DNA of 64,000 nucleotides, taken from the NCBI GenBank assembly GCA_963674745.2, contig CAXXDV010000001.1:736001-800000 (forward strand). Direction: 5' to 3'. The stretch is from Desulfosudaceae bacterium. GTDB lineage: Bacteria > Desulfobacterota > Desulfobacteria > Desulfobacterales > Desulfosudaceae. The translations under genes and the position numbers were made by a program. Under the pieces are notes generated by a model. It had not been told where the DNA came from, did no database searches, and saw only the letters and a list, made by a program, of their open reading frames with translations. Below are positions 34,872 through 64,000 of this stretch, piece by piece (position 1 is the stretch's first letter; each line of letters begins with the position of its first letter).

Positions 34872-34884
34872 ATTTTATTGTGTA

Positions 34885-41360: not shown

Positions 41361-42107
41361 TTACCGCCCGGAGACATGCAGGAACTTCGTGCGCTTGCAA
41401 ACCAACCGGACCACCATAAAAAAGGCCAGGTTCAGCGCCAGCAGATAAACCCAGACTTTAACGGAGGCAAACGAATATGCCGGGTGACCATGACTGACAA
41501 GCTGCAGAACGATAAAGGAAAAAATCGTCATGGCGGCTGTCTGGTACTCGCTTTTTAAAGCGGTTCTCCAGGAAAACGGGATCTCCGGCGGGCGCCGGTT
41601 ACGGAACACCGGCACAAAGACAGGGGTGACCTCCGCCCATTTGGTATATGTTTCTCCGAATTTGTTCAGCAGAAAATCTTCTTCGGCCAGGATAATCCGC
41701 TCATAATGCAACCAGAACCCCAGGGCGTAAATCACCACCAGCCACCATAATGAAAACATCATGACAATGCCCAGTGCGATCAGGAAATTACCCAGGTAAA
41801 GCGGGTTTCGCGTCAAAGAATATAGGCCGGTGGTATTAAGCGTATCCGCCACCTGCCCTTTCTGCCCGTTCCGTCCGGAAGTCCGCCTGGCTCTGCACCC
41901 GATGGCATAGGCCCGGAGGGCCAGGCCAATCAGGGAAACCGCAAAGCAAACCGCGTCCCAACCCCAACCGAAAAAATGAACATTCCCGGAATACAGGTGT
42001 TGATAAAAGGCAAACAATACCATGGGAATGCCAAGAACAGATGCATACATGCCTCTTTTCCGGAACAGGCGGTTACCCTGAACAACCATTTTGTCACGAA
42101 GCAACAT
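41361..42107 (-). CDS. LmtA-like lipid A 1-phosphate methyltransferase (ICMT/PEMT family)
   Basis: QGNRLFRKRG, TSGRN..QVADTLNTTGLYSLTRNPLYLGNF, YERIILAEEDFL..FG, FSWR. Confidence 0.72.
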   Translation of the reverse strand: MLLRDKMVVQGNRLFRKRGMYASVLGIPMVLFAFYQHLYSGNVHFFGWGWDAVCFAVSLIGLALRAYAIGCRARRTSGRNGQKGQVADTLNTTGLYSLTRNPLYLGNFLIALGIVMMFSLWWLVVIYALGFWLHYERIILAEEDFLLNKFGETYTKWAEVTPVFVPVFRNRRPPEIPFSWRTALKSEYQTAAMTIFSFIVLQLVSHGHPAYSFASVKVWVYLLALNLAFFMVVRLVCKRTKFLHVSGR

Positions 42108-42247
42108 GGAAAAATCCTTTCTAAACAAAGGAATACCTGGTATTTTGGAAGAGATTTTGGAAAAATCGTCTTAAAAACATATTCGGAAAAAATGCTCTCG
42201 CCAACCTGCTAATCCTTTAACATATACCAGACAAAAATTACCGGAAG

Positions 42248-42285
42248 CTTATGGCAACATTACCATTTGGCAATGTTGCCATAAG
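42248..42285. promoter_or_regulatory. 38-bp near-perfect palindrome containing CATTAC-N6-GCAAT box
   Basis: CTTATGGCAACATT-ACCATTTGGC-AATGTTGCCATAAG between divergent lmtA-like gene and response regulator. Confidence 0.75.
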
Positions 42286-42365
42286 AAGTTTGATTTTATC
42301 TTTAAAAAGCGCTACAAAAATATCAAATTATCTATTATAACATAAAGCCAAACAGATTCAACATC

Positions 42366-43043
42366 ATGCGATTATTACTGGTCGAAGATGATACCAAAAT
42401 AGCCGATTTTGTCTGCCAGGGCCTGAAGGAAGCCGGTTTCGCGGTTGATCACATGACCAATGGCGAAGACGGTCTGCACATGGCCCTGAACGAATCTTAT
42501 GACGCGGCGGTGATTGACCTGATGCTGCCCAAAGTGGACGGCCTGACCCTGATCGAAACCATGCGGGGCCGGGGCATCAATACACCGGTCCTGATACTAA
42601 GTGCCAGAAGAACCGTCGACGACCGCATCCGGGGACTGCAAACCGGGAGTGACGACTACCTGACCAAACCCTTTGCTTTTTCCGAACTGCTGGCACGGGT
42701 ACAGGCCCTGATCCGACGGGCAAGCGGCGTCGCCTCGCCGACCACATTAACGGTCAATGATCTGACCCTGAACATCCAGACCCGTCAGGTAAGACGAGGC
42801 AAACAACGCATCGACCTCCAGCCGCTTGAGTTTTCCCTGCTGGAGTACCTGATGCGAAATGCCGGGCAGGTGGTTTCCAAAACCATGATCATGGAGCATG
42901 TCTGGGACTATAACTTCAATCCACGGACCAATGTAGTAGAAGCCCGTATCTGTCATCTGCGTGAAAAAATCGACAGCGACTTTGAAAACAAACTCATTCA
43001 TACCATACGGGGCGTGGGTTATGTCCTTTCAGAAAATCCGTAA
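42366..43043 (+). CDS. OmpR-family response regulator (CusR/UzcR-like) #1
   Basis: LLVEDD, DLMLP, DDYLTKPF, HVWDYNFNPRTNVVE, IHTIRGVGY. Confidence 0.95.
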   Translation: MRLLLVEDDTKIADFVCQGLKEAGFAVDHMTNGEDGLHMALNESYDAAVIDLMLPKVDGLTLIETMRGRGINTPVLILSARRTVDDRIRGLQTGSDDYLTKPFAFSELLARVQALIRRASGVASPTTLTVNDLTLNIQTRQVRRGKQRIDLQPLEFSLLEYLMRNAGQVVSKTMIMEHVWDYNFNPRTNVVEARICHLREKIDSDFENKLIHTIRGVGYVLSENP

Positions 43044-44424
43044 CTTCAGCCATACCCTGTCTTTCCGCCTGACCCTCTGGTACACGGGGATATTCATGAT
43101 TTCAGCGTTGCTTCTGCTGTTTTTCTTTTATCATTACCTGGCATCACTGGTTCACAATCAACTGGATGAGCAGCTCGGGGAAGAAATTTTTGAGTTTCAA
43201 TCGATTCTCGAAAACGGAGGGCTGGCAGCGGTCAGACAATATCTGGTTATCGAGGTCGAATCCGAATCTGAAGATACGTTCTTCCGCCTGGTCTCCCTGG
43301 CTGACGGGCAGGAACTTGCCATGGAAAAAAATTTTTCTTTTTCGGACACCCGACCGCTGGCAGCGTTTGTCCAGGCATCGAAAAACGATACCAATAATAT
43401 ATTCGGGAACATAACCCTTCCGGGTTATCCCAACAAGCTGCGCATCGTTTCAGGACAAATCGGCCAGGGGCTTGCACTGCAAGTCGGATCTTCTTTTATC
43501 CATGATGAGAAGATACTGAATTTGTTCAAACGGATGACACTTATGGTCACCTTCCCGTTATTAATCCTCTCTGCCGTTGCCGGCTGGTTTCTGGCCCGGA
43601 ATGCTTTAAAAGACGTGGCGGAAGTTACGCTTACCGCCGAAAAAATTACCGGTGGCGACTATAATCAACGGGTCCGCCTGAAACAGAACGCCTGGGAAAT
43701 TCAGAAACTGGCCGACACCTTCAACATTATGCTGGATCGCATACAGGCACTGATAAAAGGGATGAAGGAAGTCACCGACAATATCGCCCATGACCTGAGA
43801 AGCCCGCTGACCAGAATTCGGGGCAAGGCGGAAAGAGCGATTGTCAGTAACAGCGACCTGCCACACTACCGGGACATGGCGGCCAGCACTATCGAGGAGT
43901 GTGACAACCTCATCGACATGATCAACACCATGCTGGATATTACCGAGGCCGAAGCCGGTGTGGAACGGATTGAGCTGGAAACCGTCGCCTTGAACGATCT
44001 CATCCGGGCGGCCTGCGAACTGTTCGATCCGATCGCCAGGGATAAGGATATACGATTGACGCCTGTCTTGCCGGAAAACCAGATATATATCCATGCCGAC
44101 AAACACAAACTCCAGCGCCTGGTAACCAACATGATTGAAAACGGGATCAAATATAACCGGCCCGGCGGCTCGGTAGTTATTACGGTAGCCCCAACGAACC
44201 AGTGGATCGAAATTCAGGTTGAAGACACCGGAATCGGCATCCCCGCTCAGGATTTGGAAAAAATATTCGACCGTTTCTACCGCTGTGATACGAGCCGATC
44301 CGAACCCGGCCTGGGTCTTGGACTCAGCCTGGCCCAAGCCATTGCCAAGACATCCGGTGGGGATATTACGGTCGAAAGCACAATTAATGAAGGCAGCCGA
44401 TTTACCGTCCGGTTACCGTTGTAG
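43021..44424 (+). CDS. HAMP sensor histidine kinase #1
   Basis: Two TMs, NIAHDLRSPLTRI, ENGIKY, DTGIGI, FDRFYR, GLGLGL. Confidence 0.95.
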   Translation: MSFQKIRNFSHTLSFRLTLWYTGIFMISALLLLFFFYHYLASLVHNQLDEQLGEEIFEFQSILENGGLAAVRQYLVIEVESESEDTFFRLVSLADGQELAMEKNFSFSDTRPLAAFVQASKNDTNNIFGNITLPGYPNKLRIVSGQIGQGLALQVGSSFIHDEKILNLFKRMTLMVTFPLLILSAVAGWFLARNALKDVAEVTLTAEKITGGDYNQRVRLKQNAWEIQKLADTFNIMLDRIQALIKGMKEVTDNIAHDLRSPLTRIRGKAERAIVSNSDLPHYRDMAASTIEECDNLIDMINTMLDITEAEAGVERIELETVALNDLIRAACELFDPIARDKDIRLTPVLPENQIYIHADKHKLQRLVTNMIENGIKYNRPGGSVVITVAPTNQWIEIQVEDTGIGIPAQDLEKIFDRFYRCDTSRSEPGLGLGLSLAQAIAKTSGGDITVESTINEGSRFTVRLPL

Positions 44425-44559
44425 CAAGGAAAGGGGCGCCGCTTCTCGGGACAAAATTTTTCTTGTTCTCAACAGCGATGGTAACGACGGCCTAGCACAA
44501 ACTGATTGTTTCCCATTTGCCCACCGATTCAATTTCCCTCATATCCGCTTTAGTTAAAG

Positions 44560-46086
44560 CTACTTAGCCTCATCCCGAAGGATAAGCGGCAAATACACGG
44601 TAAATATGCTGCCCTGGTTTATCGTGCTTGATACGGTCACCTCTCCTTTATGTAATTTCAGTATGGCATGGACCAGACTCAGCCCCAATCCGCTGCCCGG
44701 TCTGGAGCGACTCCGGTCGCAACGATAGAAGCGGTTAAATATATTCGGCAATTCCTCCTGGGCAAGCCCCATCCCCGTGTCTTTTATCCTTATGTTCACC
44801 TTTTTATTGGACGCCCACACATCAATATCAACATTTCCCCCGAAAGGTGTATATTTCAAAGCATTATCCAGCAGGTTGGAAATAACACGTTGAAGCATCT
44901 GACAGTTGCCGGACACATGGCATTCATCCTTGATGACGGTGTTTAATCGGATCTCTCGATTTTCAGCAACTGGTTTAAAAATTTCATCGGCCCTGCGGAC
45001 CAGATCACTGATATTGACATCTGAAAAATCAACTTCCAGCGCGTTTGCCTCGGCAGCGGCGATATAGAGCATGGTATTAATGATGGTCAGCATTGTATCG
45101 CATTCTTCAATGGTACTGGCCGCCAGGGAGGTAAAGTCGTCCATGGTGGAATCAGACGTCAGGGCAATTTCCGCGGTCCCCCGAATACGCGTTATGGGGC
45201 TTTTCAAGTCATGCGCGATGTCGTTGGACATATCGCGCATTTCGGTTATCAGGATTTGAATCCGATCCATCATGCGGTTGAATTCCCTGGCCAAAAGACC
45301 GAATTCATCCTTTCGTTCGGCCGCCGACAACCTGCGGTCAATCCCGCTGCGACCGATACGCAGAATATTTTCGATCATTGTATACAATGGGTTGAGAAAC
45401 CGGCGGTTAAGAAAATATCCCAGGATCACGATCAGAAGCAACATTTCGGCAACGGATGCCGCATAGATCCCCTGCCGGATTCGTTTTATTTTCTGATCCA
45501 GAACGGCCAGAGACATTTTTATATTGATGCTGCCCCGCCTATTCCCCAAATCAATCAGCGGCGTTGTTATGCTTAAGAACCGCTGACCGTCCGGAAAGTA
45601 AAAGTCAGGATGCTCCGGGTTCAGTCGGTTTAAGTCATCATCTTCTTCATCCTCTTCGTTCCCATCCTCAATATCCTTGTCAATAAAAACGACCGGTTGA
45701 TCATTTTTAAGGGAAGCGATCAGGCTGGCATGCTCTTCCGCCGAGGTTTCTTCAATGTTATCCGGTATATTACTGGCTACAATAGCGGATTGATCGCCCT
45801 GAACGAGAATGACATTGATTTCAATATCGTTTTTTTCTCTGATAGAAACAAGGCGGTCGATAAACGCCTGAGTGCCTTTGATATCCATTTCCAGAATGGT
45901 CGGGCTTATGCTTGATTCAAGCAGGTCGGAAAGGAGCAGCCCTTCGTGTTGAAGCTCAAATACAGTTAACGATTCAATCTGTCTCAAGTAAAAGACAGCG
46001 GTAATTATGGTGGCAAGCATTGTCAGACTGATGACAAGGAGGATGATTTGAAACCGGAGAGACCGGTAAAACGAAATTTTTTTCAT
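44560..46086 (-). CDS. HAMP sensor histidine kinase #2 with acidic periplasmic loop
   Basis: DIAHDLKSPITRI, DNALKY, DTGMG, GSGLGL; sensor loop DKDIEDGNEEDEEDDD. Confidence 0.95.
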   Translation of the reverse strand: MKKISFYRSLRFQIILLVISLTMLATIITAVFYLRQIESLTVFELQHEGLLLSDLLESSISPTILEMDIKGTQAFIDRLVSIREKNDIEINVILVQGDQSAIVASNIPDNIEETSAEEHASLIASLKNDQPVVFIDKDIEDGNEEDEEDDDLNRLNPEHPDFYFPDGQRFLSITTPLIDLGNRRGSINIKMSLAVLDQKIKRIRQGIYAASVAEMLLLIVILGYFLNRRFLNPLYTMIENILRIGRSGIDRRLSAAERKDEFGLLAREFNRMMDRIQILITEMRDMSNDIAHDLKSPITRIRGTAEIALTSDSTMDDFTSLAASTIEECDTMLTIINTMLYIAAAEANALEVDFSDVNISDLVRRADEIFKPVAENREIRLNTVIKDECHVSGNCQMLQRVISNLLDNALKYTPFGGNVDIDVWASNKKVNIRIKDTGMGLAQEELPNIFNRFYRCDRSRSRPGSGLGLSLVHAILKLHKGEVTVSSTINQGSIFTVYLPLILRDEAK

Positions 46087-46125
46087 GTTTTAAACGGAGC
46101 CTGGCAATCTAGCGCAAAAATACGT

Positions 46126-46818
46126 TTACTCTTTTACCACATAACCCACCCCCCGGAGGGTGTGAATTATTTTTTTATCAAACCCTCTGTCGATCTTGTC
46201 CCGAAGCTTGCATATTCTGGCTTCTACCACGTTTGTCCGGGGGTCGAAGTTATAATCCCAGACATGCTCTATGATCATGGTCTTCGAAACCACCCGTCCC
46301 TGGTTACGCAAAAGATATTCAAGCAGAGAAAACTCCAGGGGCTGAAGATCGATTGGCTGATTGTCCCGGGTTACTTTGCGGGACAGAAGGTCCATGTACA
46401 GGCCGGCGAATTCCAGATGCATGGGCTCGGTAACGTTGCTGGCCCGGCGGATCAACGCTTGAACACGGGCCAGCAGTTCGGAAAAAGCGAACGGCTTGGT
46501 CAGATAATCATCGCTCCCGGAATGAAGCCCTTTAACGCGATCGTCAACCGTATTTTTAGCGCTTAAAATAATAACCGGCGTGTTGACGCCTTTATTCCGC
46601 AGTTCTGCAATTATGGACAAACCGTCACGTTTCGGCAGCATAATGTCAATGATGGCTGCATCATAAGGCTCCACCAAGGCCATATGAAGCCCGTCCTCTC
46701 CGTCAGCCGCGTGATCAACCGCAAAGCCGGTTTCTCTCAACCCTTTGAGAACAAAAGAAGCGATTTTGGGGTCATCTTCTACTAGCAGCAGACGCATAGT
46801 TTCCTGAGCCTCTGTCAT
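46126..46818 (-). CDS. OmpR-family response regulator #2 (paralog of 42366-43043)
   Basis: Near-identical blocks: GSDDYLTKPFAFSELLARVQALIRRAS, IDLQPLEFSLLEYL. Confidence 0.95.
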   Translation of the reverse strand: MTEAQETMRLLLVEDDPKIASFVLKGLRETGFAVDHAADGEDGLHMALVEPYDAAIIDIMLPKRDGLSIIAELRNKGVNTPVIILSAKNTVDDRVKGLHSGSDDYLTKPFAFSELLARVQALIRRASNVTEPMHLEFAGLYMDLLSRKVTRDNQPIDLQPLEFSLLEYLLRNQGRVVSKTMIIEHVWDYNFDPRTNVVEARICKLRDKIDRGFDKKIIHTLRGVGYVVKE

Positions 46819-46914: not shown

Positions 46915-48348
46915 TCAATCAACCAGCTCGACAATTTCATCTCCGCCCACCATTTCCTCTTTTATCAGCCCGATACCGGGCGCGTAATACTTGTATTCCA
47001 GAATCGGATCAATCGAGTTCCAGTCCAATGTTTGCAGGCAGTTTTCATATACGGTTCCGTTTTCCAGTTCCACTTCGACATCAAGAGCGACGATCATGCC
47101 CATATCTTCCGCTTCCCCCTCGTAATATTCCTGGTAATAGGATTCGCCCGCTGAAGGGCTATTCCACATGGCGATACCCGGCAACGCTCCGTCAACGCCG
47201 GCTTCCCATGAACCGTCATCATTGGTTTCAACCAGTTCACCCTCATCATTATATTCATAATTAATGACTTCTTCGCCCATGTACCAGACGTTGCCATTGT
47301 CATCCTGGGCAAACCAGTCATTGGTATCTTCAATAAGAACATCACCATCCCCTTGATCAAGAGTCACCCGGTCGTGGAAAATAACGCACGCCACTCCGTT
47401 TACAACCCGGGTGGTTGCTAGGACTTCGGTGACGATAGTTTCTACCTCTTCCTCGCCTTCCATGCGGTAATTGAGGATAACACCCGGAGCCAGCGGCAGG
47501 TAGGTGTTGTCGATAATAGTGGGGTTACTGAAAACAGCCGCGTTAAAGTCCGGTGCACGGTCCTCTCCGGTAAGAAAGACGCCTTTTAATTCGGCGAATT
47601 CTTCACCATCCGTGGCCTCTTCTTTGACCAGACCGACCTCCGGGGCATAATATTTATATTCTTCAGAATCCTCTTCAAGCGGGTTCCACTCCAGGGTCTT
47701 CAGGCAGTTCGTGTATGTCGTGTCATCTTCCAGAACGACGGATCCGCCAAGCTCCTCTACCCGTGCCATGTCTTCAGCCTCGCCTTCGTAAAACTCCTGC
47801 TGATAGGAATTCCCCACCACAGGGTTAGCCTTAATCAGGATGCCGGCCACGGCATTGCTGCCAATTCCGGCCACATCCAGGCCTGATTCCCACGATCCTT
47901 CATTGTCGGTTGCGACCAGTTCACCGTCATCATCATACTCATAATTGACGACATCCTCACCCAGGTACCAGACATTTCCGTCGTCATCCTGGGCGAACCA
48001 GTCGTCCGTATCTTCGATCAGCAGTTCATCCAGATACACCCGGTCGAGAAACATCACACATTCCACTCCATCAACCATTCTGGTGGTATCAAGCACTTCG
48101 GTGACAATGGTTTCAAGGCCATCTTCGGTTTCCGACTGATAAATATGAACCGTGCCCGGATTCAACGGCAGATAAGTGTTGTCTATTCGGGTGGGATCAC
48201 TGAATAAAGCCGCACTGAAAGACGGATCAATCGAGTCTGATGAAGAATTGTTGCCGGCTTTCGAGCCTGATGATCCGCTATCACAGCCTGTTCCCAAGAT
48301 GATCGTCAAGAAAACAATCATTACCAAATAGAATTTTCCATGTTTCAT
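46915..48348 (-). CDS. Highly acidic lipoprotein made of two homologous domains
   Basis: Lipobox LGTGC; repeat IDNTYLPL.PG..LIEDT.DWFAQDD.GNVWY.GE..YEGEAEDM..KYYAP occurs twice. Confidence 0.85.
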   Translation of the reverse strand: MKHGKFYLVMIVFLTIILGTGCDSGSSGSKAGNNSSSDSIDPSFSAALFSDPTRIDNTYLPLNPGTVHIYQSETEDGLETIVTEVLDTTRMVDGVECVMFLDRVYLDELLIEDTDDWFAQDDDGNVWYLGEDVVNYEYDDDGELVATDNEGSWESGLDVAGIGSNAVAGILIKANPVVGNSYQQEFYEGEAEDMARVEELGGSVVLEDDTTYTNCLKTLEWNPLEEDSEEYKYYAPEVGLVKEEATDGEEFAELKGVFLTGEDRAPDFNAAVFSNPTIIDNTYLPLAPGVILNYRMEGEEEVETIVTEVLATTRVVNGVACVIFHDRVTLDQGDGDVLIEDTNDWFAQDDNGNVWYMGEEVINYEYNDEGELVETNDDGSWEAGVDGALPGIAMWNSPSAGESYYQEYYEGEAEDMGMIVALDVEVELENGTVYENCLQTLDWNSIDPILEYKYYAPGIGLIKEEMVGGDEIVELVD

Positions 48349-48462
48349 TTTTGCACCTTACTTTCTCTTTTTAGTTATTCGCGGCTGCTACCTTATAAAA
48401 AGGTATGCGATGATATCTAATTTTTTTTTACCACGAGAAAATGATGGGGAAGTTACCGCAAG

Positions 48463-48514
48463 ATTACAAAAAGGTCATTTTGGTTTCAGACCGTAAAGAT
48501 TATCAAATTGTAAT
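48463..48514. promoter_or_regulatory. Two ATTAC-N6-GTAAT-like boxes in divergent promoter region
   Basis: ATTACAAAAAGGTCAT (48463-48478) and ATTATCAAATTGTAAT (48499-48514). Confidence 0.6.
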
Positions 48515-48678
48515 GTCATCATAATATTCACGTCATTTTTCATTGTTACTATTCTACCCGTTACATGAATTTATGTTTATTGTCCGATAGTGGGCATCCA
48601 GGCATTTGAAGTCGTTCTTCCGGCATCGGCCGAAAGAAAAAGCCCTGGTACTCAAACTTATTTACAAGCAGGAGTTTA

Positions 48679-49647
48679 ATGATGAAAATCTTCAAACCTT
48701 TATTTCTGGTCGTGTCATTTATGCTTATCACCATTTTTTCAGTTCAGGCGGCATCAGGGGATCTGAAGTTTGCCGTTATATCCGATGCCCATGTTGAAAA
48801 GCTGGACACCGCCCTGGCCTTTATTTCCGCCCAGGAGGTAAATTTTATTATCCTGGCCGGTGATTATTATTATGACCAGCAGAACTATTATCCTTATTTT
48901 ATCAAATACGGTTTTGAAGTAGCCCCTCACCTGGCCGAAGATAACCAACCGATTTACTTTGTCATGGGCAATCATGATGAGGACCCGGTGGGTGAGCCCG
49001 GGTTTCAAAACCTGATAGCGCCTTATTATCCGACAAACGGCCCTTCAGGCGCGCCAACCGGGACAATCTTTTCTTTTGACCGGGGAAAATGTCACTTTGT
49101 TATTACCAACCAGTACTGGCAATATCCGGGAGGCGGTTATTCGCCGGCGCAACTGGACTGGATCGAAAAAGACCTGGCAAATTCTTCCATGCCCTTTAAA
49201 TTCGTTGTGGGTCATGAGCCGGCTTTCCCGCTGGAAAGGCATGTCGGCGATTCCCTGGACATCGATCCGGATATGCGCGATATGTTCTGGTCGGTATTAA
49301 TGGACAATAACGTTCAGGCATTTTTTTGCGGGCATACCCATAATTTAAGCCATATGCTGCATCAGGGGGTTTACCAGATCGACGCGGGTGAAATCGACGC
49401 CGGCCATGTCTGTGTAACCATCGTGGAAATGAACGATAATAAAGCGGTCATTAACTCCTTTGAAAACCCCACCAATGAGAACCTGGTTGTGACAACTGAT
49501 GATGGTGTCAACGCGGCGGATATCTTTCACCGGACACTGGTTCCGCAAAGCACCGACGATTCAACCCTTGAAACGGTCCTTTTCGAAGGCTCATCACCGA
49601 AGGGTGGCGGTTCTTGCTTTATCGATACACTGTGCTTTCCATTTTAA
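48679..49647 (+). CDS. Secreted calcineurin-like metallophosphoesterase #1 with GGSCFI C-terminal tag
   Basis: Signal peptide, SDAH, AGD, GNHD, VGH, GHTH; ends GGGSCFIDTLCFPF. Confidence 0.88.
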   Translation: MMKIFKPLFLVVSFMLITIFSVQAASGDLKFAVISDAHVEKLDTALAFISAQEVNFIILAGDYYYDQQNYYPYFIKYGFEVAPHLAEDNQPIYFVMGNHDEDPVGEPGFQNLIAPYYPTNGPSGAPTGTIFSFDRGKCHFVITNQYWQYPGGGYSPAQLDWIEKDLANSSMPFKFVVGHEPAFPLERHVGDSLDIDPDMRDMFWSVLMDNNVQAFFCGHTHNLSHMLHQGVYQIDAGEIDAGHVCVTIVEMNDNKAVINSFENPTNENLVVTTDDGVNAADIFHRTLVPQSTDDSTLETVLFEGSSPKGGGSCFIDTLCFPF

Positions 49648-49681
49648 TTCCACGCGTTCCTGATAATATTTACCACTGATT

Positions 49682-49708: not shown

Positions 49709-50027
49709 ATAGTGGCGGTTACAACCAACGCGGTTTCAGCATAAATGGATGTAACAGGTTGAGCTGCGCCGCATTACCGCGACTATTACCGGAGATATCC
49801 GTAAAGTATCCGAAACGGATTATCGGCCACAGGTGTTCTCCAGACCGCATTGATTCCAGCCTCCACCGAGGTGCGACGATTGTCCATAAACACTCGCGGA
49901 TATCATCCGGTTCAACATTTTTCTGCCTTTCCTTCAATTATAAAAAAGCACCCCCGGCGGCTCATCAGAACTCACCCGGTCATGAGTTGTGGTAGCCACA
50001 CATCACCCGGGGAAAAGGACTGATAAC

Positions 50028-50043
50028 ATTATCAAATGTTAAG
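50028..50043. promoter_or_regulatory. Degenerate regulator box in duplicated promoter
   Basis: ATTATCAAATGTTAAG followed by ~70 nt resembling 48515-48590. Confidence 0.55.
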
Positions 50044-50212
50044 GTTGCTATAATATCCACGTCATTTTTTAATTGTTACTATCTCTCCGGTTAAATGAAT
50101 TTCTGTTTATTGTCAGACAACAGGAATTCGGCCATTCGCAGCAGCGCTTCCGGCATTGGCCGGAAGGCGTTGCCTGTATTGTCAAACATCATTTACAGAC
50201 AGGAACGTTACA

Positions 50213-52870: not shown

Positions 52871-53000
52871 TCGATGTTCATTTATTTTTTGACCCTTCAT
52901 CTGCATTTTACATGCAGGATTAACCTCATTTATTGCGACAAATCCTCTGCCCGGTTACCGCAATCGCCCTTATACAAACAAAATGTACAGGATCTCCACC

Positions 53001-53016
53001 ATTACTAAATGGTAAT
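53001..53016. promoter_or_regulatory. Regulator box
   Basis: (C)ATTACTAAATGGTAAT with TATACT about 33 nt downstream. Confidence 0.7.
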
Positions 53017-53096
53017 TTTTCAGCAACAATGCCGTCATCTTGAACTTTTATACTGCAGAGTAATATTAAACATCCGAAAAGCTGATGGTGTTATGA

Positions 53097-54917: not shown

Positions 54918-54944
54918 AGGTTTCTCAGCAGATTCATGGCTATC

Positions 54945-54960
54945 ATTACCAAATGGTAAT
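54945..54960. promoter_or_regulatory. Regulator box
   Basis: (C)ATTACCAAATGGTAAT(G) with TATTAT about 33 nt downstream. Confidence 0.72.
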
Positions 54961-55067
54961 GTTCCGGCAATCATCCAATAATCCTTCAATTTATATTATT
55001 TATCAATTTAAGCAATTATAGAATAAATCCAAAGAAACGGACGCAAAGGCCGATCGTATTAACAGTA

Positions 55068-56897
55068 ATGATTATTGCCAACCCTAAAGTTACTGCCGGA
55101 CAACCGTCCGAAACAAGCCGCATACTGCCAACTTTTGCAAAGCATCGGTCCATTAACGACCTTATCTGTCTGTTGGCGGTGCTGGCGATAGGATTCACAG
55201 GTATCTTGGGCCATGATCTGTGGACCCCGGATGAGCACAGGGTAGCCGCCATTGTCCTTGAAATGGCACAAACCGGAAATTTTGTCATCCCGCATCTGGC
55301 CGGGGTGCCGTTCATTGAAAAACCGCCCCTCTACTTTGCTGTTGCGGCCATAATGCTCAAGGTTATGGGACCGCTGATCGGACCGGTCGGCGCCATCCGC
55401 CTGACGTCGGCCTTGTTCGGGCTGGGCGTGCTGCTCATGACCTTTCTGATTACCCGGCGCTTATGGGGAAATAAAACCGGGGTCCTGGCCGTTGCGGTGC
55501 TGGCCACCATGGAAGGCTTTGTTGAAAATTTTCACTGGATCGTGGTCGATCCGGCCCTGGCCTTTTTTGTCGTCGCCTTTGTCTGGTGCCTGGTCGAAAT
55601 ATATTTTAACAACCGCCGATTTTGGTTTCCACTGGCCGGATTTTTTCTGGCCGGGGCGTTTCTTTCTAAAGGCGCGATCGGACCGGCCCTGGCGTTCATC
55701 CCCTGGCTGGGCCTGATGGTTATCTGGTTCTTTGAAAAACGTGAACAGAGGGATCTGAGCAAGGGCTTCGTTACCGCGCACCTGTGGCTCCTTCTGGTTT
55801 TTGTGATCATGACCGGACTCTGGATCGTGTTGTTATATATTAAAGGCGGCCCCCGGCTCTGGAATGAATGGTTCTGGGTGAACCAGGTCGGTCGTTTTAC
55901 CGGCCAGGCCGCGAAAGGTCACATCAAACCCGGACAACCGCTTTATTACGTGCTTCAGGCAATCGGTTACGGCCTGCCGTGGACGCCGCTGTTTTTATAC
56001 TGGCTGGGAACGACGGTTATCGGTTCCGCAAAAAAAAAGTTTTCCAATGATGAAGGGAAAAATCTGTTCCTCTGGATCTGGGGAATCGGCTCAATCGTGC
56101 TATTAACCATTCCCGCCACCAAACGGGGACTTTATATGCTACCGGTCCTGCCCGCTTTTGCCATTATGGTGGCCGTCAGCCTTATAGAACAAAAAACCGC
56201 TTCATGGTTCAAGTGGTATGCCGGATTCTGGACTACAATTTGTTTGGTCATTATGGCGGCCGTACTCATTATACCGCTGACGCCCGGTTTCCTTCCGAAT
56301 TCAATACCGGAAGAGGTGAAAGCGGTTTTGGTTGATTTTAATCATTATCATGTTATTATATTGATCTGGCTGGCAATCTGCATGGTGGCCATTATCCGGT
56401 TTCGCGACATTATCTCCAAAGAATACATGATGGTCCTGACAACGACCGGCCTGCTGGTGGTCCTTCTGGGCGTACCGATCCAGGCCATCGATCAAAAGGA
56501 AAGCATGGGCGCTGATGTGCGCCGGTTTGTGTCCCGGGTGCCGGAATCGCAACGCGATCGGATCGCCGGCTTCGGGTACACCTCAGCCAGGCAATTCTCC
56601 GAAACCATGTTGGGGGCATTTTATTTTTATACCGGTTGGAAGGTCCCCCAGATTGGTGATGAACAGCGCATACAGCAGATTCTCGCCGGACAGGACAAAG
56701 ACTATGACAGCCTGTTGGTCAATCGTCGGGACAAGCACGGCGACCTGCAGCCCGAAACCGACCTGGCGGACGTTCCCTATGAAATCCTTTCCGAAATGGT
56801 CACCGGCGACGAACAGAACCGAAAAGTATTCTGGATCAGGGGCGCAGGTAGCCGCCATATCCAGAAGGGACCAGTGATAAACCGAAAGGAAAACTGA
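55068..56897 (+). CDS. ArnT-like glycosyltransferase #2 (tandem paralog)
   Basis: [16 protein letters not shown]; long blocks shared with #1; stop overlaps arnB start. Confidence 0.88.
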
Positions 56898-58048
56898 TGC
56901 GACAAACCTTTTTACCCTTCTCGCTGCCGTCCATCGGAGAAGACGAAATCGCCGCCGTAACCGAGGTGATGCGTTCCGGATGGATTACCACCGGCCCGAA
57001 AAACAGTGAGTTTGAGCAACAGTTCAGTGAATATACTGGCGCATCCCATACGGTCGCCCTGAGCTCGGCCACCGCAGGCATGCACCTGCTGTTAAAAGCC
57101 TTAGGCATCAAGCCCGGTGACGAGGTCATCACCCCGTCCATGACCTGGGTCTCAACCGTCAACCTGATCGTGCTGGCCGGCGCGACCCCGGTTTTCGCGG
57201 ATATTGACCGGGACACGCTGATGGTGACGCCGGATACAATAGCGCCCTGCCTGAGCAGCCGCACCCGGCTGATCCTTCCGGTCCACTTTGCCGGCGCATG
57301 TGCGGATCTGACCGGTTTGCGGAAACAGGCCGAAGATGCCGGTGTTCCCATGATTGAAGACGCCGCTCATGCCGTGGGCACGGAATACAGAGGTGAAAAG
57401 ATCGGTTGCCGGGGCACGTCCATATTTTCTTTCCACCCCATTAAAAATATCACCACCGGTGAGGGCGGCATGGTCTGTTCCGACGATCCCGACCTGGTCG
57501 AAGCCATCCGCCGGTTAAAGTTTCATGGGCTGGGCAAGGATGCCTATGACCGCAGCAGCCAGGGACGGTCACCTCAGGCGGAGGTACTGGAGCCGGGTTA
57601 TAAATACAATATGCCGGACATGCTGGCGGCCCTGGGTATTGTCCAGTTGAAAAAAATCGACGTTTTTAACCGCAAACGTGCTGAACTGGCCGGCCACTAC
57701 CTGGATCTGTTAAGCGACGTGGATGAGATTGTTCCGCTGTCCATACCACCGGCCGACTGCAAACATGCCTGGCACCTGTTTATTGTGCGACTTGACGCGG
57801 ACAAGGCCGCCCTGAACCGGGATGAGTTCATGGAGGCCCTGAAACAACGAAACATCGGCACCGGCCTGCATTTCCGTGCGGTACATCAACAGAAATTCTA
57901 TCGGGAAACCATGCCGTACCTGTCCGGCACGCTTCCCAACACCGAATGGAACTCGGACAGGATCTGCTCTTTGCCCCTGTTTCCGGATATGGAAGCCGAC
58001 GATGTCAGGGATGTGGTTACAGCCATCAAGGAAATTTTATCAAAATGA
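56897..58048 (+). CDS. arnB: UDP-4-amino-4-deoxy-L-arabinose aminotransferase
   Basis: [56 protein letters not shown]. Confidence 0.93.
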
Positions 58049-58989
58049 ATGAAAACTGTCTGATATCGATTGTTATCCCCGTATTTAACGAGGAGGATAA
58101 CCTGGATGAATTAATACGGCGCTGTCTTTCCGTCTGCCGCGGCCACAAGAACCCTTTCGAGGTTATTCTGGTCGACGACGGCAGCACTGACCGGTCCGCG
58201 CAAATGATTGAACGGGCGGCCCTTACAAACCCGGAACTAACCGGTATTCTTCTGAACCGGAACTATGGGCAGCATTCCGCGGTTATGGCGGGTTTTGAAG
58301 CGTCCCGGGGAGAAATTGTCGTTACCCTGGATGCCGATCTTCAGAACCCGCCCGAGGAGATCCCCCGGCTCATTGAGACCATGGCCGAAGGATACGACGT
58401 GGTCGGCAGCGTCCGGATGAACCGACGTGATCCGATCTTTAGAAAAATCGCCTCATTTGCGGTGAACAAATACGTTCAAAGAGTCACCGGCGTCATGATG
58501 AAGGATTACGGCTGCATGCTGAGGGCCTATCGCCGGCACATTATTGACGCGGTTTTAAACTGCCCGGAACGCAGTACTTTTATTCCGATCCTGGCCAACA
58601 GCTTTGCCCGGTCAAGCACGGAAGTAAACGTCAGCCACGATGAACGACATAATGGTGACTCAAAATACGGCTTTTATGAACTGATATCTCTGCAGTTTGA
58701 CCTGCTGACCTGCATGACCGCCTTTCCCCTGCGACTGTTCAGTATCCTGGGCGCCCTGGCCTGTTTTGCCGGAACCGGTTTCGGTATTTTTCTTATGGTC
58801 ATGCGCCTCATATTCGGGGCTACATGGGCTGCGGAGGGGGTGTTTACGCTGTTTGCCATTCTGTTTGTCTTTGTCGGAGTGCAATTTCTGGCCTTCGGAT
58901 TGATCGGCGAATACATCGGTCGCATTTACAACGATGTCCGGGCCAGGCCCCGGTATTACGTACAGAAAACTGTCGGAAACCACCCTTAA
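58045..58989 (+). CDS. arnC: Undecaprenyl-phosphate Ara4FN transferase
   Basis: [61 protein letters not shown]. Confidence 0.93.
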
Positions 58990-59004
58990 GAAAGGAAAAC
59001 ATCT

Positions 59005-61074
59005 ATGAAAACAATCGTTTTTGCATATCATAACATCGGTTGCGAAGGAATCCGGGCGCTCTTGCGCAACGGATTTGAAATTGCGGCTATCATTACCCAT
59101 ACGGATGATCCATCCGAGGCGACCTGGTTTGATTCCGTAGCGGAACTGGCGGTTGAGCAAGACATACCCGTTTATGCGCCGGAAGATGTCAACCACCCCA
59201 TTTGGGTGAACAGAATACGGTCTCTGGCCCCGGACATTATTTTTTCGTTTTATTATCGAAACATGCTGGGTCGGGAAATCCTTGACATCCCGGGCCAGGG
59301 CGCACTGAACCTGCATGGTTCCCTGCTGCCCGCCTACCGGGGGCGATGCCCGGTCAACTGGGTCCTGATTAACGGTGAAAAAAAAACCGGTATTACCCTG
59401 CATTACATGACATCCGCACCTGATGCCGGTGATATCGTGGCCCAGGAAGAAATTGCGATAACGCAGGAGGACACGGCCCACACCTTGTACGGCAAGCTGG
59501 TGCCGGCCGCATCCAGGCTGCTGGACAAATATCTTCCGCTCATTAAAGCCGGATCGGCGCCGCGTGTCCCTCAAAATTCTCTGCAGGCCTCTTATTTCGG
59601 CGGCCGGCGACCCGAAGACGGAGAAATTAACTGGAGCTTGTCGGCCGAATCGGTCCGCAACCTGGTCCGGGCCGTCACCCGGCCTTATCCCGGGGCATTT
59701 TCCCATACCGGCGACCGCAAGATCCTGTTCTGGAAAGCAACCTGTGTTCCATGCAGACAAAAGGCCGTTGCGCCGGGTACCGTCCTGTCGACCGTGCCCC
59801 TGGTCATCGCCTGCGGCAAGGACGCCGTCCAGATCGATTCCGGGCAGACCGAACCCGGTGTCCCCGTAACCGGCCCGCAACTGGCGGACGAACTTAAACT
59901 TGTTACCGGGCTGACGTTCGGGCCGGCAGTGGGCCCGGCCTTGGAGCAGAACAGAAAAAAACAAGTACTGATACTGGGGGTAAACGGATTTATCGGTAAC
60001 GCCCTGACCGAAAGGCTGCTTGACGGCGGCCGTTACGAGGTCCACGGTATGGATATTCACTCGGACAGTATCGGCCGGTTTAAAGGAAAACCGGGTTTTA
60101 CTTTTCATGAAGGCGATATTGCCATCCATCGGGAATGGATCGAATACCATATCAAAAAATGCGACATCATCCTGCCGCTGGTGGCCATTGCCACACCGGC
60201 CGAATACACCCGCAATCCCCTGACCGTTTTCGAGCTTGATTTTGAAGAAAACCTGCGCATTGTTCGTTACTGTGCAAAGTATGGCAAACGCATTCTTTTC
60301 CCCTCCACTTCCGAAGTATACGGCATGTGCGATGACGGGACATTTAACGAGGAATCATCAAACCTGGTGCTGGGACCGATCAATAAACAGCGTTGGATTT
60401 ATTCCTGCAGCAAGCAGCTCCTGGACAGGGTGATTTACGCTTATGGACAGAAGCAGGGCCTGAAATTCACTCTTTTCAGGCCGTTCAACTGGATCGGACC
60501 GCGGCTGGACAGCCTGTCATCAGCCCGAATCGGGAGTTCCCGGGCGATCACCCAGCTGATTCTCAACCTGGTCGAAGGCACGCCGATTCAGCTGGTGGAC
60601 GGCGGCCGGCAACAGCGCTGTTTTACCGACATATCGGACGGGGTTGAATGCCTCTACAGAATTATAGAAAATCATGGCAGCCGTTGCGACGGGCAGATCA
60701 TCAACATCGGCAATCCGGACAACGAAGCCAGTATCAAAGAACTGGCCGAGATGCTGGTGGAGGCCTTCGACCATCACCCGTTGCGCTCACAGTTCCCACC
60801 GTTCGCCGGCATGCGGGAAGTGGAAAGCGGAACCTTTTACGGTCAGGGCTACCAGGATGTTCAGCACCGCAAACCGAGTATCGGCAATGCCCGCCGCCTG
60901 CTGGGCTGGGAACCGACGGTTCCCCTGGCGCAATCAATTAAAGAAACCCTTGATTTCTTTCTCCGGCAGACGGTAGGAGTATCTTTGAACAGACCAGATA
61001 GGGATATGCAAGATTTAAGCTTGAAGGAAATCCCCCGGGAGACTATTTATTATGGAACTCGGACTCAGGGTTGA
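59005..61074 (+). CDS. arnA: Bifunctional UDP-GlcA oxidase/decarboxylase and UDP-Ara4N formyltransferase
   Basis: [57 protein letters not shown]. Confidence 0.96.
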
Positions 61075-61939
61075 TGTAGATACATACCGCGGCACCCGGA
61101 CAGGCGTCCCCAATCTGCGAAAAATCTTTTACGATAACGCCATAACCGCATCCTTCTTTTTTTCCATGGGGCCGGATAATATGGGCCGCCATTTATGGCG
61201 ACTGTTGAGGCCGGCTTTCCTGAAAAAAATGATGCGTTCAAACGCGCCCGGGCTTTATGGCTGGGATATTCTACTGCGGGGAACGATCTGGCCGGGACCG
61301 GTTATCGGCCGTGAAGCCGGACAGGTTATACGGGCGGTTGCCGCCGACGGTCATGAGACAGGACTTCATGCCTGGGACCACCACCGTTGGCAGGTGAAAG
61401 CGCTCCTTATGGATGACGAGATGGTATATCACGACATTGAAGCCGGCTTTAATTTATTCGCCGACATTGTCGGCCGGCCGCCGTCATGCTCGGCCGCGCC
61501 TGGATGGATATGCAACAACACCATACTGAAACAAAAAGACCTGTTTCCATTTACCTATAATTCCGATTGTCGGGGAACAGACGTTTTTCTTCCACTTGTT
61601 GAAGGAAGGTCATTAACCGTCCCCCAGATACCGGTGACGTTACCGACTTATGACGAAATTATCGGCAGCCGTGGGATTACCGCTGAAAGCTACAACGATC
61701 ATCTTCTTTCCCTGATACAGCCTGACCGACTGAACGTACTGACCGTTCATGCCGAAGTGGAAGGCATTATCTGCCGGGAGTTGTTTGTTGATTTTCTTGA
61801 AAGATGCCGACAAAAGGAAATTTCCATTGTCCCCCTCGGGCGCCTGTTAAAAGAGGATGAACCGCTACCCGGTGCAACTGTTCGCCTGGGAGAAATTGGT
61901 GGCCGTCAGGGGCTTGTTTGCATGCAAAATAAGAATTAA
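61052..61939 (+). CDS. arnD: Ara4FN-undecaprenyl deformylase
   Basis: [44 protein letters not shown]. Confidence 0.93.
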
Positions 61940-61953
61940 CACATAAAAAATGA

Positions 61954-63657
61954 ATGATTATGACATCTGATCTTTCTCATTTCTTCCCGGGCAGCAATAA
62001 ATCCCTTAAACTTTATACCCTGTTCGTTGTTTTCGGTTTTGTGCTGGTTTATTTGCTGCCCCTGGGTGTTCGTCCGCTGGTTATTCCGGATGAAACCCGG
62101 TACGCGGAGATTCCCCGGGAAATGATCGCCTCCGGGGACTGGGTCGTGCCCCGTTTAAACGGACTGCGCTACTTTGAGAAGCCTGTTCTGGGATACTGGA
62201 TCAACGCCCTGAGCATTCAAACGTTCGGAGAAAATGCCTTTGCCGCCCGCTTTCCGGCAGCCATGGCAACAGGCTTGACCGCTCTGCTTATTTGCTTGTC
62301 AGTCGCTTTTTTTGCCGGAGAAACCGGCACCGGTCTTCTGGCATCACTCGTTTTTTTAACCAGCCTGGAAGTCTTCTGCCTGGGAGTCGTCAGCACCCTG
62401 GACAGTATGGTGGCGTTTTTTCTTGCCTGTGCTGCAGGCAGTTTTTTCGCCGCCTGGTCCAATCGGACCATACCCGCCAGGTTTTACCTGTTCCTTCTTG
62501 TTTCCGGTATCAGTTGCGGCCTGGCCTGTCTGACCAAAGGGTTTCTGGGACTGGCCGTTCCCTTGCTGACCATTTTCCCCTTTCTCCTGTGGCAAAAAGA
62601 ATGGAAAAACGCCGTAGTTGTCACCACTATGCTTATCATTCTTGCTCTGCTGGTTATGCTGCCCTGGGGCCTGGCAATCCATATGAGAGAACCGGATTTC
62701 TGGAATTTCTTTTTCTGGAACGAACATATCCGTCGCTTCTTATCTGACAATGCCCAGCACGACCAGCCTTTTTTTTATTTTTTCCTGGTGCTGCCCCTGG
62801 GTTTTTTCCCCTGGACCGCGCTTTTGCCGGCAGCCATCGCCGGACACAGAAGAAAAGGGGTATTGACACCGTTCTTTCAATTTACGATATGCTGGCTGTT
62901 GTTTCCTTTTCTGTTCTTTTCAATTTCATCGGGCAAACTGCTTACCTATATCCTGCCCTGCTTTCCACCGCTGTCGATTCTGACTGCGGCGGGCTTGAAA
63001 AAATATTTTGATTCACCCGGGAACGCCTTTTTTAACAACGGTCTTCGCCTGATGATGGGGTTGATTATCATATTGATGATTGCGGTCCCTGTCATTCAAA
63101 GCGGATTAATGGCCAAAAGCGCCCCCCCTGTTGAACCCGGCAAAGCCTTTTTGCTTTTCGCGGCCCTCCTCTTCTACATCACCTTGCTGTTCTTCTCTTT
63201 GAAAACAGGCCAACCACTCAAAAAAATGGCCCTGTTTGCCCTGGCACCGGTTATTTTATATCTCTCGACCCATTTTATAATGCCCGGATATATTGAAAAA
63301 GAAAAAGCGCCCGGTTGTTTTCTGAAAAAACACGCAGCCGGGATCACCCCCCGGACGGTGGTCGTATCGACTGAAACAGCCATCAGGGCGGTGTGCTGGT
63401 TTTTCAAAAGGGATGATGTTTTTGTGCTCAGCGACAATGACGGCGGAGAACTTTACTACGGTCTGTCATACAAAAACAGCAGGCATCGGCACTTGACTTT
63501 CGATCAATTTCATAGGCGGATAGCCGGCAACACCTGGAGCGCCCCGGTTGTGCTTATCATCAAATCAAAAAAATACAACAGAAGGAAGCATGAATTGCCG
63601 GAGCCCGCTTATATGGACACCAGCGGTGAAAACGGCTATGTTTTTGCCGCCTATTAA
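61954..63657 (+). CDS. arnT: Lipid A 4-amino-4-deoxy-L-arabinose transferase
   Basis: PDETRYAEIPREM, GLRYFEKP, LTKGFL, EPDFW.FFFW.EHI.RF, GKLLTYILP, GELYYGL. Confidence 0.92.
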   Translation: MIMTSDLSHFFPGSNKSLKLYTLFVVFGFVLVYLLPLGVRPLVIPDETRYAEIPREMIASGDWVVPRLNGLRYFEKPVLGYWINALSIQTFGENAFAARFPAAMATGLTALLICLSVAFFAGETGTGLLASLVFLTSLEVFCLGVVSTLDSMVAFFLACAAGSFFAAWSNRTIPARFYLFLLVSGISCGLACLTKGFLGLAVPLLTIFPFLLWQKEWKNAVVVTTMLIILALLVMLPWGLAIHMREPDFWNFFFWNEHIRRFLSDNAQHDQPFFYFFLVLPLGFFPWTALLPAAIAGHRRKGVLTPFFQFTICWLLFPFLFFSISSGKLLTYILPCFPPLSILTAAGLKKYFDSPGNAFFNNGLRLMMGLIIILMIAVPVIQSGLMAKSAPPVEPGKAFLLFAALLFYITLLFFSLKTGQPLKKMALFALAPVILYLSTHFIMPGYIEKEKAPGCFLKKHAAGITPRTVVVSTETAIRAVCWFFKRDDVFVLSDNDGGELYYGLSYKNSRHRHLTFDQFHRRIAGNTWSAPVVLIIKSKKYNRRKHELPEPAYMDTSGENGYVFAAY

Positions 63658-63802
63658 TTGTAAAGGGGCCATGTCTTCAGGCACAGCTTTATAATCTTTC
63701 CTTGCATCCACTGGCATCAGAATATATGGTTGCCAGAATCATGTCGGAACTGCCGGATTACATGACTTGAAATTCCGGCTGGCTTGAAAGGCGCTTTTTA
63801 AA

Positions 63803-64000
63803 ATGTTTCAGTGGCTGTTTAGAAAAAAATCCGGAAAATATTACCGAGTCGCTGCGCTGCTGGCTGTGATTATTTTAATTGCAGGAGCGGGCTTATACTA
63901 TTATAAATCCAGACCACGACATTTTGCTGTTGTAAAAGAAGGCGTGCTGTATCGAAGTGCCTTGCTCAAACCGGATAACCTGAAAAAAATCCTTGATGAT
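63803..64000 (+). CDS. Membrane-anchored tyrosine/dual-specificity phosphatase-like protein (5' part, truncated by window)
   Basis: Manual translation MFQWLFRKK..TM..RHFAVVKEGVLYRSALLKPDNLKKILDD; F..V..G.LYRS is typical of DSP/PTP N-termini, but the catalytic CX5R is not in the window. Confidence 0.55.
   Translation, partial: MFQWLFRKKSGKYYRVAALLAVIILIAGAGLYYYKSRPRHFAVVKEGVLYRSALLKPDNLKKILDD

Follow-up and report, generated by a model that had tools for sequence, protein, structure and literature searches.

Lipid A remodelling is driven by sensors with an ExxE motif in the two-component systems (TCS) ColRS, RaxHR and BqsRS (PMC4074579, PMC8306577, PMC4358008). ColRS is described as sensing Zn, Fe, Mn and Cd via ExxE and as controlling ArnT/ArnC-like, CptA, phospholipid and porin genes (PMC4074579), RaxHR as adjoining arnT, lpxE and eptA (PMC8306577), and BqsRS as sensing Fe(II) via RExxE, binding repeats with an 11-bp period and activating arnB (PMC4358008). 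DNA motifs have been given as ATTAC-N6-GTAAT for CzcR of P. stutzeri (PMC8025907) and as CATTAC-N6-TTAA for UzcR, whose site precedes the start by 43 or 53 bp (PMC8963506, PMC12864828). Here we describe an island of envelope genes in a Desulfosudaceae genome (G000; 5.55 Mb, 99.96% complete), in which one oriented promoter type precedes six transcription units, co-occurs with a clade of response regulators (RR) and is accompanied by envelope-modifying cargo. The island lies in a 64,000-nt stretch (contig positions 736,001-800,000; G000:C1:736001-800000), hereafter called the window, whose coordinates are used throughout. It is an insert of ~26 kb between kef and mltG (39416-65603, extended into the genome), two genes that are adjacent in both congeners, G001 and G002, and it is not marked out by GC content.

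A previous interpretation of these letters alone (the sequence-only reading) had proposed an undescribed metal-stress island in a sulfate reducer. All genes that it named are present and intact, and are contiguous from 41361 to past the end of the window. Its dual-specificity phosphatase (DSP) is not partial, as had been stated, but a complete 194-aa gene that ends at 64387 in the extended sequence. A profile search of G000 found dsrA above its cut-off, which bears out the host as a sulfate reducer. To call the system undescribed goes too far: the logic of a cation sensor, lipid A masking and phosphatases is known from PmrAB, ColRS and BqsRS, and the exact gene set was found in no other genome examined. 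No description of such a lipid A remodelling regulon in sulfate reducers was found in the literature, within a search whose scope excluded most subscription papers, supplements and regulon databases, nor was the island motif seen in the available part of the deltaproteobacterial regulon study Rodionov 2004 (PMC545781). The new elements are an LmtA-like gene under regulon control, a widespread Pfam-less acidic half-barrel lipoprotein (LP) and a rare sensor domain.

The likeness to Pseudomonas ColRS and Xanthomonas RaxHR lies in the OmpR-type pair with an ExxE periplasmic sensor, in targets that comprise ArnT/ArnC-like proteins, EptA/CptA, phosphatases and a porin, and in TCS genes that may stay uninduced (PMC4074579, PMC8306577). 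The ExxE of ColS and RaxH adjoins the second transmembrane segment (TM2), however, whereas that of the first island histidine kinase (HK1) follows TM1, and the targets of both systems, as far as described in the available text, lack the LmtA-like protein, LP, the metallophosphoesterases (MPE) and DSP (PMC4074579, PMC8306577). In addition, both island regulators, RR1 and RR2, score best with the CusR/CopR/CzcR model. The ColR box, moreover, differs in sequence from the island box. With Salmonella/E. coli PmrAB (BasRS) and P. aeruginosa BqsRS the island would share iron-type ExxE sensing that leads to the arn operon and to cationic-stress tolerance (PMC4358008). BqsR likewise uses 5-bp repeats set 6 nt apart, with an 11-bp period and in overlap with the site of the polymerase, and glutamates 45/48 of BqsS are near the N-terminus, as is the ExxE of HK1; the BqsR half-site is TTAMG, however, as against GTAAT after an inverted copy here, and HK1 lacks the Arg that BqsS requires for Fe(II) (PMC4358008). 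The PmrA model gave 197 bits for RR1 and 180 bits for RR2 (cut-off 330), whereas the heavy-metal regulator model TIGR01387 gave 266 and 260 bits (cut-off 279), and the corresponding kinase model TIGR01386 gave 229 bits for HK1 and 242 bits for HK2 (cut-off 293). For the two systems described as CusR/UzcR-like, heavy-metal models score best for both pairs, but all four proteins remain under the family cut-offs.

The resemblance to CusR, CopR, CzcR and UzcR extends to the DNA. The island palindrome is identical to the CzcR motif of P. stutzeri and near the UzcR site (PMC8025907, PMC8963506), and the box is centred ~52 nt upstream of the predicted start. Several paralogous regulators can use one such site, and UzcR also drives envelope genes (PMC11195947, PMC8963506, PMC12864828). 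In contrast to these systems, the island palindrome is followed by two extra direct repeats, and the predicted targets belong to lipid A and the envelope and do not include the CusA/CzcA pump of the genome. As in regulons of the PmrAB, ColRS and BqsRS type, the element stands upstream of arn here and of eptA in G002, with 11 further arn/arnT sites. We propose that the island works like PmrAB, ColRS and BqsRS but with a CzcR/UzcR-type box, while it passes the formal cut-off of neither group.

The oriented promoter element

A palindrome shared by the upstream regions had been noted in the sequence-only reading. CATTAC-N6-GTAATG was matched at 42258, 48462, 48498, 50027, 53000 and 54944 in the island; three of the seven genome sites with at most one mismatch fall in it, and weaker 18-mer matches in G000 lie mostly within genes. 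The palindrome proved to be the front of a longer, oriented element, in which CATTAC-N6-GTAAT is followed by two more GTAAT/GGTAAT-like repeats in 11-bp steps and then by a -10 hexamer. At 24 of 39 sites oriented toward their target gene, a TAnnnT hexamer begins exactly 31 nt beyond the box, as compared with 0 of 39 on the opposite side (orientation was assigned by the analyst, and some sites are near-duplicates). This layout suggests an OmpR-family activator that would cover the -35 region.

A 57-bp promoter model was built from 32 training sites of other genomes, with G002 held out, and used at a threshold of 14 bits. On both strands of G000 it gave six matches, all of them in the island (28-54 bits), which precede lmtA, arnT2-arnBCAD-arnT3, MPE1, LP, arnT1 and MPE2; outside the island no site in G000 reached the threshold. 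The three held-out G002 sites scored 31-36 bits. The training sites had initially been chosen by likeness to the window 18-mer, and hence the downstream 37 columns were also scored alone. This yielded p values of 9e-8 (promoter 1) to 2e-5 on the target sides and of 0.02-0.96 on the opposite sides. Because MPE1/MPE2 and ArnT1/ArnT2 are tandem duplicates including their promoters, the six sites count as at most four independent ones; the four non-duplicated promoters have an identical oriented 55-bp architecture. The idea of a single regulon is borne out by this shared promoter, and we have little doubt that the six units are co-regulated.

The claim of a shared palindrome holds beyond chance for these six sites, but not for every gene to which it was extended. 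With the promoter model no own site was found before the AlgE-like gene (-21 bits), DSP, RR2, htrB or degP (-5 bits) in G000. Given gaps of 96-183 nt, RR2-HK2, the AlgE-like gene and DSP would be reached by read-through, which for the AlgE-like gene would come from MPE2. The 42258 site is oriented to lmtA (54 bits) and not to RR1 (-0.6 bits), and autoregulation of RR1 through it was rejected for this orientation. A scan for sigma-70 promoters and terminators gave a result near chance level.

Regulator clade, element and cargo in other genomes

Our survey set comprised 401 genomes of the phylum Desulfobacterota, in which related genomes count separately though kin are not independent. RR1-like regulators (E value 1e-85 or better) were present in 74 of them; among named loci, the closest, with 74-80% identity, were in Desulfobacterales/Desulfobacteraceae; the nearest plasmid-borne regulators were mostly alpha- and betaproteobacterial (51-63% identity). 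We inspected 40 of the 87 matched places, selected for score and length of contig. An intergenic site with at most two mismatches adjoined the RR-HK operon at 21 of these 40 loci, where the true half-site gave 22 matches and each of 89 permuted half-sites at most three. Written as an IUPAC pattern, the element was found in 51 of the 401 genomes (74 sites, two of them in G000), as compared with three matches for a reversed control. The regulator clade was present in 40 of these 51 genomes. Outside the training genomes, 25 of 52 RR-positive genomes carried a site versus 11 of 327 RR-negative ones.

At the 72 non-self sites the target was an envelope gene in 49 cases. The first downstream gene or operon was degP at 21 sites, lipid-modifying at 16, a phosphatase at five (one a weak match), an outer-membrane efflux channel at five and PepSY at two, the other 23 being of other or unknown kind. 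The lipid-modifying class consisted of arnT/arnC/arnA-type genes (11), LtaS-like sulfatase-fold genes (three), a methyltransferase with an lmtA-like gene (one) and cardiolipin synthase (one). The sister species G002 retains lmtA (58% identity), RR1 (83%), HK1 (61%) and DSP (54%), and between the retained genes it has another phosphoesterase family and eptA (NF028537, 620 bits, above the cut-off) with the same promoter. Its DSP orthologue has its own site and is followed by an LtaS-like gene with the same promoter; arnA was not found in G002. The same switch would drive eptA in G002 and arn in G000, which points to cassettes for 4-amino-4-deoxy-L-arabinose (Ara4N) and phosphoethanolamine being exchanged under one switch between sister species. 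The sequence-only proposal of charge masking on lipid A and lipopolysaccharide (LPS) is well matched by these targets, namely eptA in G002 and, for 16 of the 72 sites, arn/arnT or another gene of lipid modification.

Partial versions of the island were found as RR-HK-AlgE-LP (L042, with the AlgE-like orthologue between RR-HK and LP), LP-RR-HK-arnT beside a full arn operon (L086), LP-RR-HK (L106), MPE-RR-HK-arnC-arnT (L234), MPE-DSP-arnT (L299) and LtaS-like-lmtA (L285). In one genome (G199) an S-adenosylmethionine (SAM) methyltransferase and a Kdo/WaaP-family kinase adjoin RR-HK and arn, which we take to resemble the ColR targets PP0903-0905. The 40 RR-clade loci contained arn-type genes in 13 cases, degP in 14, LP in one, and orthologues of lmtA, MPE, the AlgE-like gene or DSP in none; a close AlgE-like orthologue was present in one of 200 genomes of the order. 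Conservation of the whole island as a unit was rejected on these grounds. Co-localisation of homologues is seen for partial gene sets, which recur with the regulator or the site, but not for the exact combination. These comparisons show a conserved switch with modular cargo.

With the promoter model, a Kangiella record (L017) scored 29.5 bits upstream of its LP gene and a Granulosicoccus record (L015) 16.9 bits; the switch may extend to Gammaproteobacteria. A variant of the element stands before small zinc-ribbon genes at L288, L289, L292 and L293 (family code f133), in genomes without the regulator clade at the threshold used, where perhaps a paralogous regulator acts.

Island proteins and their proposed roles

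The features of the island are listed in Table 1.

Table 1. Genes and predicted regulon promoters of the island, in window coordinates.
Feature	Position	Strand	Remarks
LmtA-like membrane methyltransferase	41361..42128	-	likely start 42107; TIGR04571 E 2e-55, under cut-off; Pfam PEMT
Regulon promoter 1 (lmtA)	42221..42275	-	box 42258-42275, two repeats, -10; 54.3 bits, best site of the genome
RR1, OmpR-family regulator	42366..43043	+	nearest CusR/CopR/CzcR models; TIGR01387 266 bits
HK1 sensor kinase	42961..44424	+	likely start 43021; ExxE (E75/E78) directly after TM1
HK2 sensor kinase	44560..46086	-	rare single-Cache/PAS periplasmic domain and acidic loop
RR2	46126..46818	-	71% identity to RR1, recognition helix near-identical
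LP, acidic two-repeat lipoprotein	46915..48348	-	no Pfam/NCBIfam family; LolA/YmcC-like open beta half-barrels (model)
Regulon promoter 2 (LP, probably RR2-HK2)	48425..48479	-	box 48462-48479; 31.9 bits
Regulon promoter 3 (MPE1)	48498..48552	+	33.2 bits
MPE1, exported calcineurin-like metallophosphoesterase	48679..49647	+	PF00149; Gly-rich CFI C-terminal tail; signal peptide by inspection
Regulon promoter 4 (MPE2)	50027..50082	+	28.3 bits; duplicate of promoter 3
MPE2	50213..51175	+	tandem duplicate of MPE1, 71% identity
AlgE-like outer-membrane barrel	51359..52870	+	PF13372 (Alginate_exp); no own site (-21 bits)
Regulon promoter 5 (arnT1)	53000..53054	+	31.1 bits
ArnT1, divergent ArnT-family transferase	53097..54917	+	NF009784 96 bits; PDE-x-R and EKP motifs
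Regulon promoter 6 (arnT2-arnBCAD-arnT3)	54944..54998	+	perfect 18-mer; 39.8 bits; duplicate of promoter 5
ArnT2	55068..56897	+	66% identity to ArnT1; NF009784 96 bits
ArnB aminotransferase	56897..58048	+	NF008658 590 bits (cut-off 631)
ArnC	57946..58989	+	likely start 58045; NF007986 478 bits (cut-off 529)
ArnA bifunctional enzyme	59005..61074	+	NF005998 1098 bits, above cut-off 777
ArnD deformylase	61052..61939	+	NF011923 381 bits (cut-off 382)
ArnT3, nearest of the three to canonical ArnT	61954..63657	+	NF009784 480 bits (cut-off 567)
DSP, membrane-anchored dual-specificity phosphatase (HCTHGVVR)	63803..64000, on to 64387	+	194 aa, whole

The ExxE motif of HK1 is retained in its G002 orthologue. 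In the sensor family it was found in 10 of 17 sensors beside LPS genes versus 0 of 12 beside degP. HK2 has no ExxE at the place that aligns with the HK1 motif. Its periplasmic domain, for which 23 relatives were found among 1185 candidates, has a single Cache/PAS fold (WalK sensor, Z 13.7, root mean square deviation (rmsd) 2.6, 140 aligned) with the invariant residues E89, N91, S105, N106, N110, E118 and H119. Domains of this type also occur with other outputs, namely HD domains, adenylate/guanylate cyclases and PF06580 kinases (P0133-P0135, P0142-P0143); with outputs so varied, the domain is a mobile sensing module with a conserved pocket. LP and HK2 as a fixed pair were rejected: the HK2 sensor domain was unmatched among sensors beside other LP genes.

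LP (477 aa) consists of two ~220-aa repeats that are 58% identical, contains 23% Asp+Glu (isoelectric point (pI) ~4.05) and has a lipoprotein-type Cys22 that is at least 90% conserved. No Pfam or NCBIfam family matched it; relatives amounted to at least 3259 among 8000 scored, in bacteria and archaea. Acidic and aromatic residues predominate among its conserved positions; in an alignment of 76 LP sequences, 35 Asp/Glu columns reach at least 95% conservation. The structural model (predicted local distance difference test score 92) consists of two open beta half-barrels, nearest to BDI_3050 (4fvs; Z 11.8, rmsd 3.9, 171 aligned). LolA/LppX-type folds ranked lower, and the top Foldseek rows were non-specific beta-rich matches. 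BDI_3050 and BF2203 (3fzx), which are DUF3108-like/YmcC-like exported proteins, share the open half-barrel with LP; LP differs from them in having 13% identity, no Pfam match, two tandem domains and a conserved EDTxDW[FY]AQDxxGNVWYxGE motif. An Atlas cluster with 10% PF21347 members lies near LP. An RR+HK pair was located at most 3.5 kb from LP in 22 of 80 GTDB loci across phyla (18 of 56 with full flanks), whereas the same test gave 1 of 17 for lmtA loci, and fusions with PepSY or with RTX Ca-binding repeats occur among LP relatives. As an acidic exported protein beside a TCS, LP is a functional analogue of Microbacterium UipA (PepSY), and it would bind cations.

LmtA is the lipid A 1-phosphate methyltransferase, an enzyme that carries out SAM-dependent methylation of the 1-phosphate of Kdo2-lipid A (Kdo, 3-deoxy-D-manno-octulosonic acid). 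The island protein has the same size as Leptospira LmtA and matches TIGR04571 over its full length (188 bits, cut-off 325); unlike the Leptospira gene, the gene here lies behind a predicted inducible promoter type shared with arn or eptA. The genes arnB, arnC, arnA, arnD and arnT form one operon, in which ArnA alone is above its cut-off and ArnD 1 bit under. Both MPEs have all five metal-ligand motifs (DxH, GD, GNHD, GHE and GHxH) intact, and searches of the locus proteins against Pfam and NCBIfam gave no PhoN- or PhoK-type family match. The nearest solved relative of DSP is TpbA (E value 9e-8). Both MPEs end in a Gly-rich stretch with CFI (GGGSCFIDTL; 49600-49647 and 51130-51175), which resembles a CFI-box C-terminal sorting tag; the NCBIfam search raised no match to such a tag. 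A loose pattern was matched by 23 open reading frames of G000, 15 of which look like exported proteins with a CFI tail, 13 of them beyond the MPEs (e.g. C1:410619-413609 and C3:1468568-1472821). The tail may anchor the phosphatases at the surface.

These features suggest the following mechanism. HK1, through its ExxE helix, and HK2, through its distinct acidic Cache domain, would detect envelope cation stress, most likely an excess of a multivalent metal such as Fe or Zn; that the signal is the metal itself we consider fairly probable. RR1 and/or RR2 would bind the box with its repeats, which span about -61 to -22 as computed from the sites and their geometry, and activate the six promoters. 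Ara4N would then be made and transferred to putative acceptors by up to three ArnT enzymes, making the envelope less negative, and the LmtA-like enzyme would lower the negative charge further by methylating a phosphate on a likewise putative acceptor. For the phosphatases, the likeliest task is removal or recycling of phosphate esters in the envelope, as for the PAP2/LpxE genes in the ColR and RaxR regulons. LP would most likely act as a cation buffer by means of its conserved acidic residues, the role of PepSY proteins in related loci. From the orientation of the sites, LP-RR2-HK2 would probably form an inducible module for feedback, with RR1-HK1 as the constitutive sensor. Envelope charge masking is highly likely to be the main job of the island. 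As a whole, the explanation that the island is the entire local regulon of a TCS clade common in Desulfobacterota sulfate reducers is the best we can offer, and we judge it moderately probable.

Competing explanations and genomic surroundings

Several observations weigh against this explanation. The commonest target of the element is degP, a general envelope-stress gene, and the true CusA/CzcA pump gene of G000 has no site according to the promoter model. None of seven tested resistance-nodulation-division (RND)-type proteins at regulon loci was above the CzcA cut-off, although one partial gene scored best to CzcA. ExxE is present in only 14 of the 42 family sensors, and its association with cargo was not significant in an independent-pairs test on these 42 sensors, being confounded by descent. 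Among the enzymes, the LmtA-like protein and all three ArnTs are below the cut-offs of their models (567 for NF009784), and the Ara4N route lacks a known step: no match to the ArnE/ArnF flippase models PRK02971, PRK15051 and PF00893 was found in the nearly complete genome, where another flippase is possible. Linkage is also incomplete, in that 58 of the 80 LP loci have no adjacent RR+HK pair, and of 21 lmtA-like loci found, 17 were examined and 13 had no link to the regulon.

The prominence of degP (21 of 72 sites) leads to the main rival, a general envelope-stress regulon that, like Cpx, Bae or UzcRS, responds indirectly, its sensors reading damage, low pH or cationic peptides and LP carrying a lipid or a misfolded substrate. 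The presence of RND channels, cardiolipin synthase, MoxR and SurA/PpiD among targets or neighbours agrees with it, as do the LolA/LppX-like fold of LP and the finding that E98 is the only universal acidic/His sensor residue among HK1 relatives. For UzcRS itself, activation through loss of an envelope protein has also been described, and its sensing of uranium has been proposed to be indirect (PMC12864828, PMC8963506). However, the degP-linked sensors belong mainly to one clade without ExxE, whereas HK1 and its G002 orthologue keep the motif; the degP of G000 has no site; and most conserved residues of LP are acidic or aromatic, the 35 Asp/Glu columns among them. We regard this explanation as rather unlikely, while preferring cation-responsive charge masking. 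The sequence-only reading had gone further toward metals, with detoxification of hard cations such as uranyl or lanthanides: the phosphatases would release inorganic phosphate (Pi) that precipitates the metal, and LP would nucleate or chelate it. Three exported phosphatases and a very acidic lipoprotein in one regulon fit this, the MPEs show a distant likeness to purple acid phosphatases (E value 4e-6), the box resembles the UzcR site in sequence and spacing, uranyl is a ligand of the PepSY protein UipA, and a phytase is among the genes under UrpRS control (PMC8963506). The phosphatase families are interchangeable, however (two MPE families, DSP and PAP2), are co-transcribed with eptA, arnT or LtaS-like genes, which fits lipid turnover, and adjoin lipid-modifying enzymes as in the ColR and RaxR regulons. 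Pi release for biomineralisation is unsupported except for the mere occurrence of phosphatases, a feature of known lipid A regulons too. Close MPE orthologues occur in 3 of 200 genomes of the order, and one of the three is linked to the regulon system. A uranium or lanthanide specificity likewise found no backing, as the annotated targets include no phosphate-supply or uranium-specific gene; uranium biomineralisation was rejected for want of a supporting neighbour or target, and our literature search on that subject gave no paper featuring a metallophosphoesterase among the ten listed. Precipitation of many metals as sulfides and reduction of U(VI) are, besides, already within the capacity of sulfate reducers. 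This explanation seems improbable to us.

It would be a very improbable coincidence, finally, if unrelated modules had gathered at an insertion site and shared the motif only via tandem duplication. The ~26-kb insertion between genes that are neighbours in both congeners, the origin of two of the six sites by duplication and the absence of the full set from other examined genomes would be expected in that case; the four non-duplicated promoters with the same oriented 55-bp architecture would not, nor would the recurrence in other families of LP, AlgE-like, MPE, DSP, lmtA and arnT, each alongside that regulator or that site (L042, L086, L106, L234, L285, L299).

Under the charge-masking explanation the island opens no new kind of system, its logic being that of PmrAB, ColRS and BqsRS. 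It provides a precise, testable promoter model with a list of targets for an envelope regulon represented in roughly a fifth of the sampled Desulfobacterota genomes, places an LmtA-like enzyme under predicted stress control, and hints at a function for a large lipoprotein family that lacks annotation and for a rare sensor domain. Desulfobacterota sulfate reducers inhabit pipelines and sediments rich in metals, and cationic biocides are used against them. A joint proposal, that LP domains are widespread periplasmic or surface binders of metal cations induced by adjacent sensors and that the HK2 Cache domain is a new direct sensor of hard cations (Fe, Ca, lanthanide or uranyl), is tentative, and we would not expect it to hold in full. 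If true, the regulon would be the sulfate reducers' counterpart of PmrAB, and would provide the first case beyond Leptospira in which methylation of a lipid A phosphate is inducible and serves to defend against cations.

The kef-mltG insert additionally carries a TetR gene and a gene for a 280-aa membrane protein, and DSP is followed by an HtrB/LpxL-like acyltransferase gene (64399-65364) without a regulon site and then by mltG. Three intact genes without Pfam/NCBIfam match, outside the regulon, are located at 33585-34871, 34912-36009 and 40422-41264. A 26-nt repeat near 34882-34907 is multicopy in relatives, and an intergenic element of ~145 nt past the window (G000:C1 ~806315-806460) has many copies with 82-96% identity in G001 and G002.

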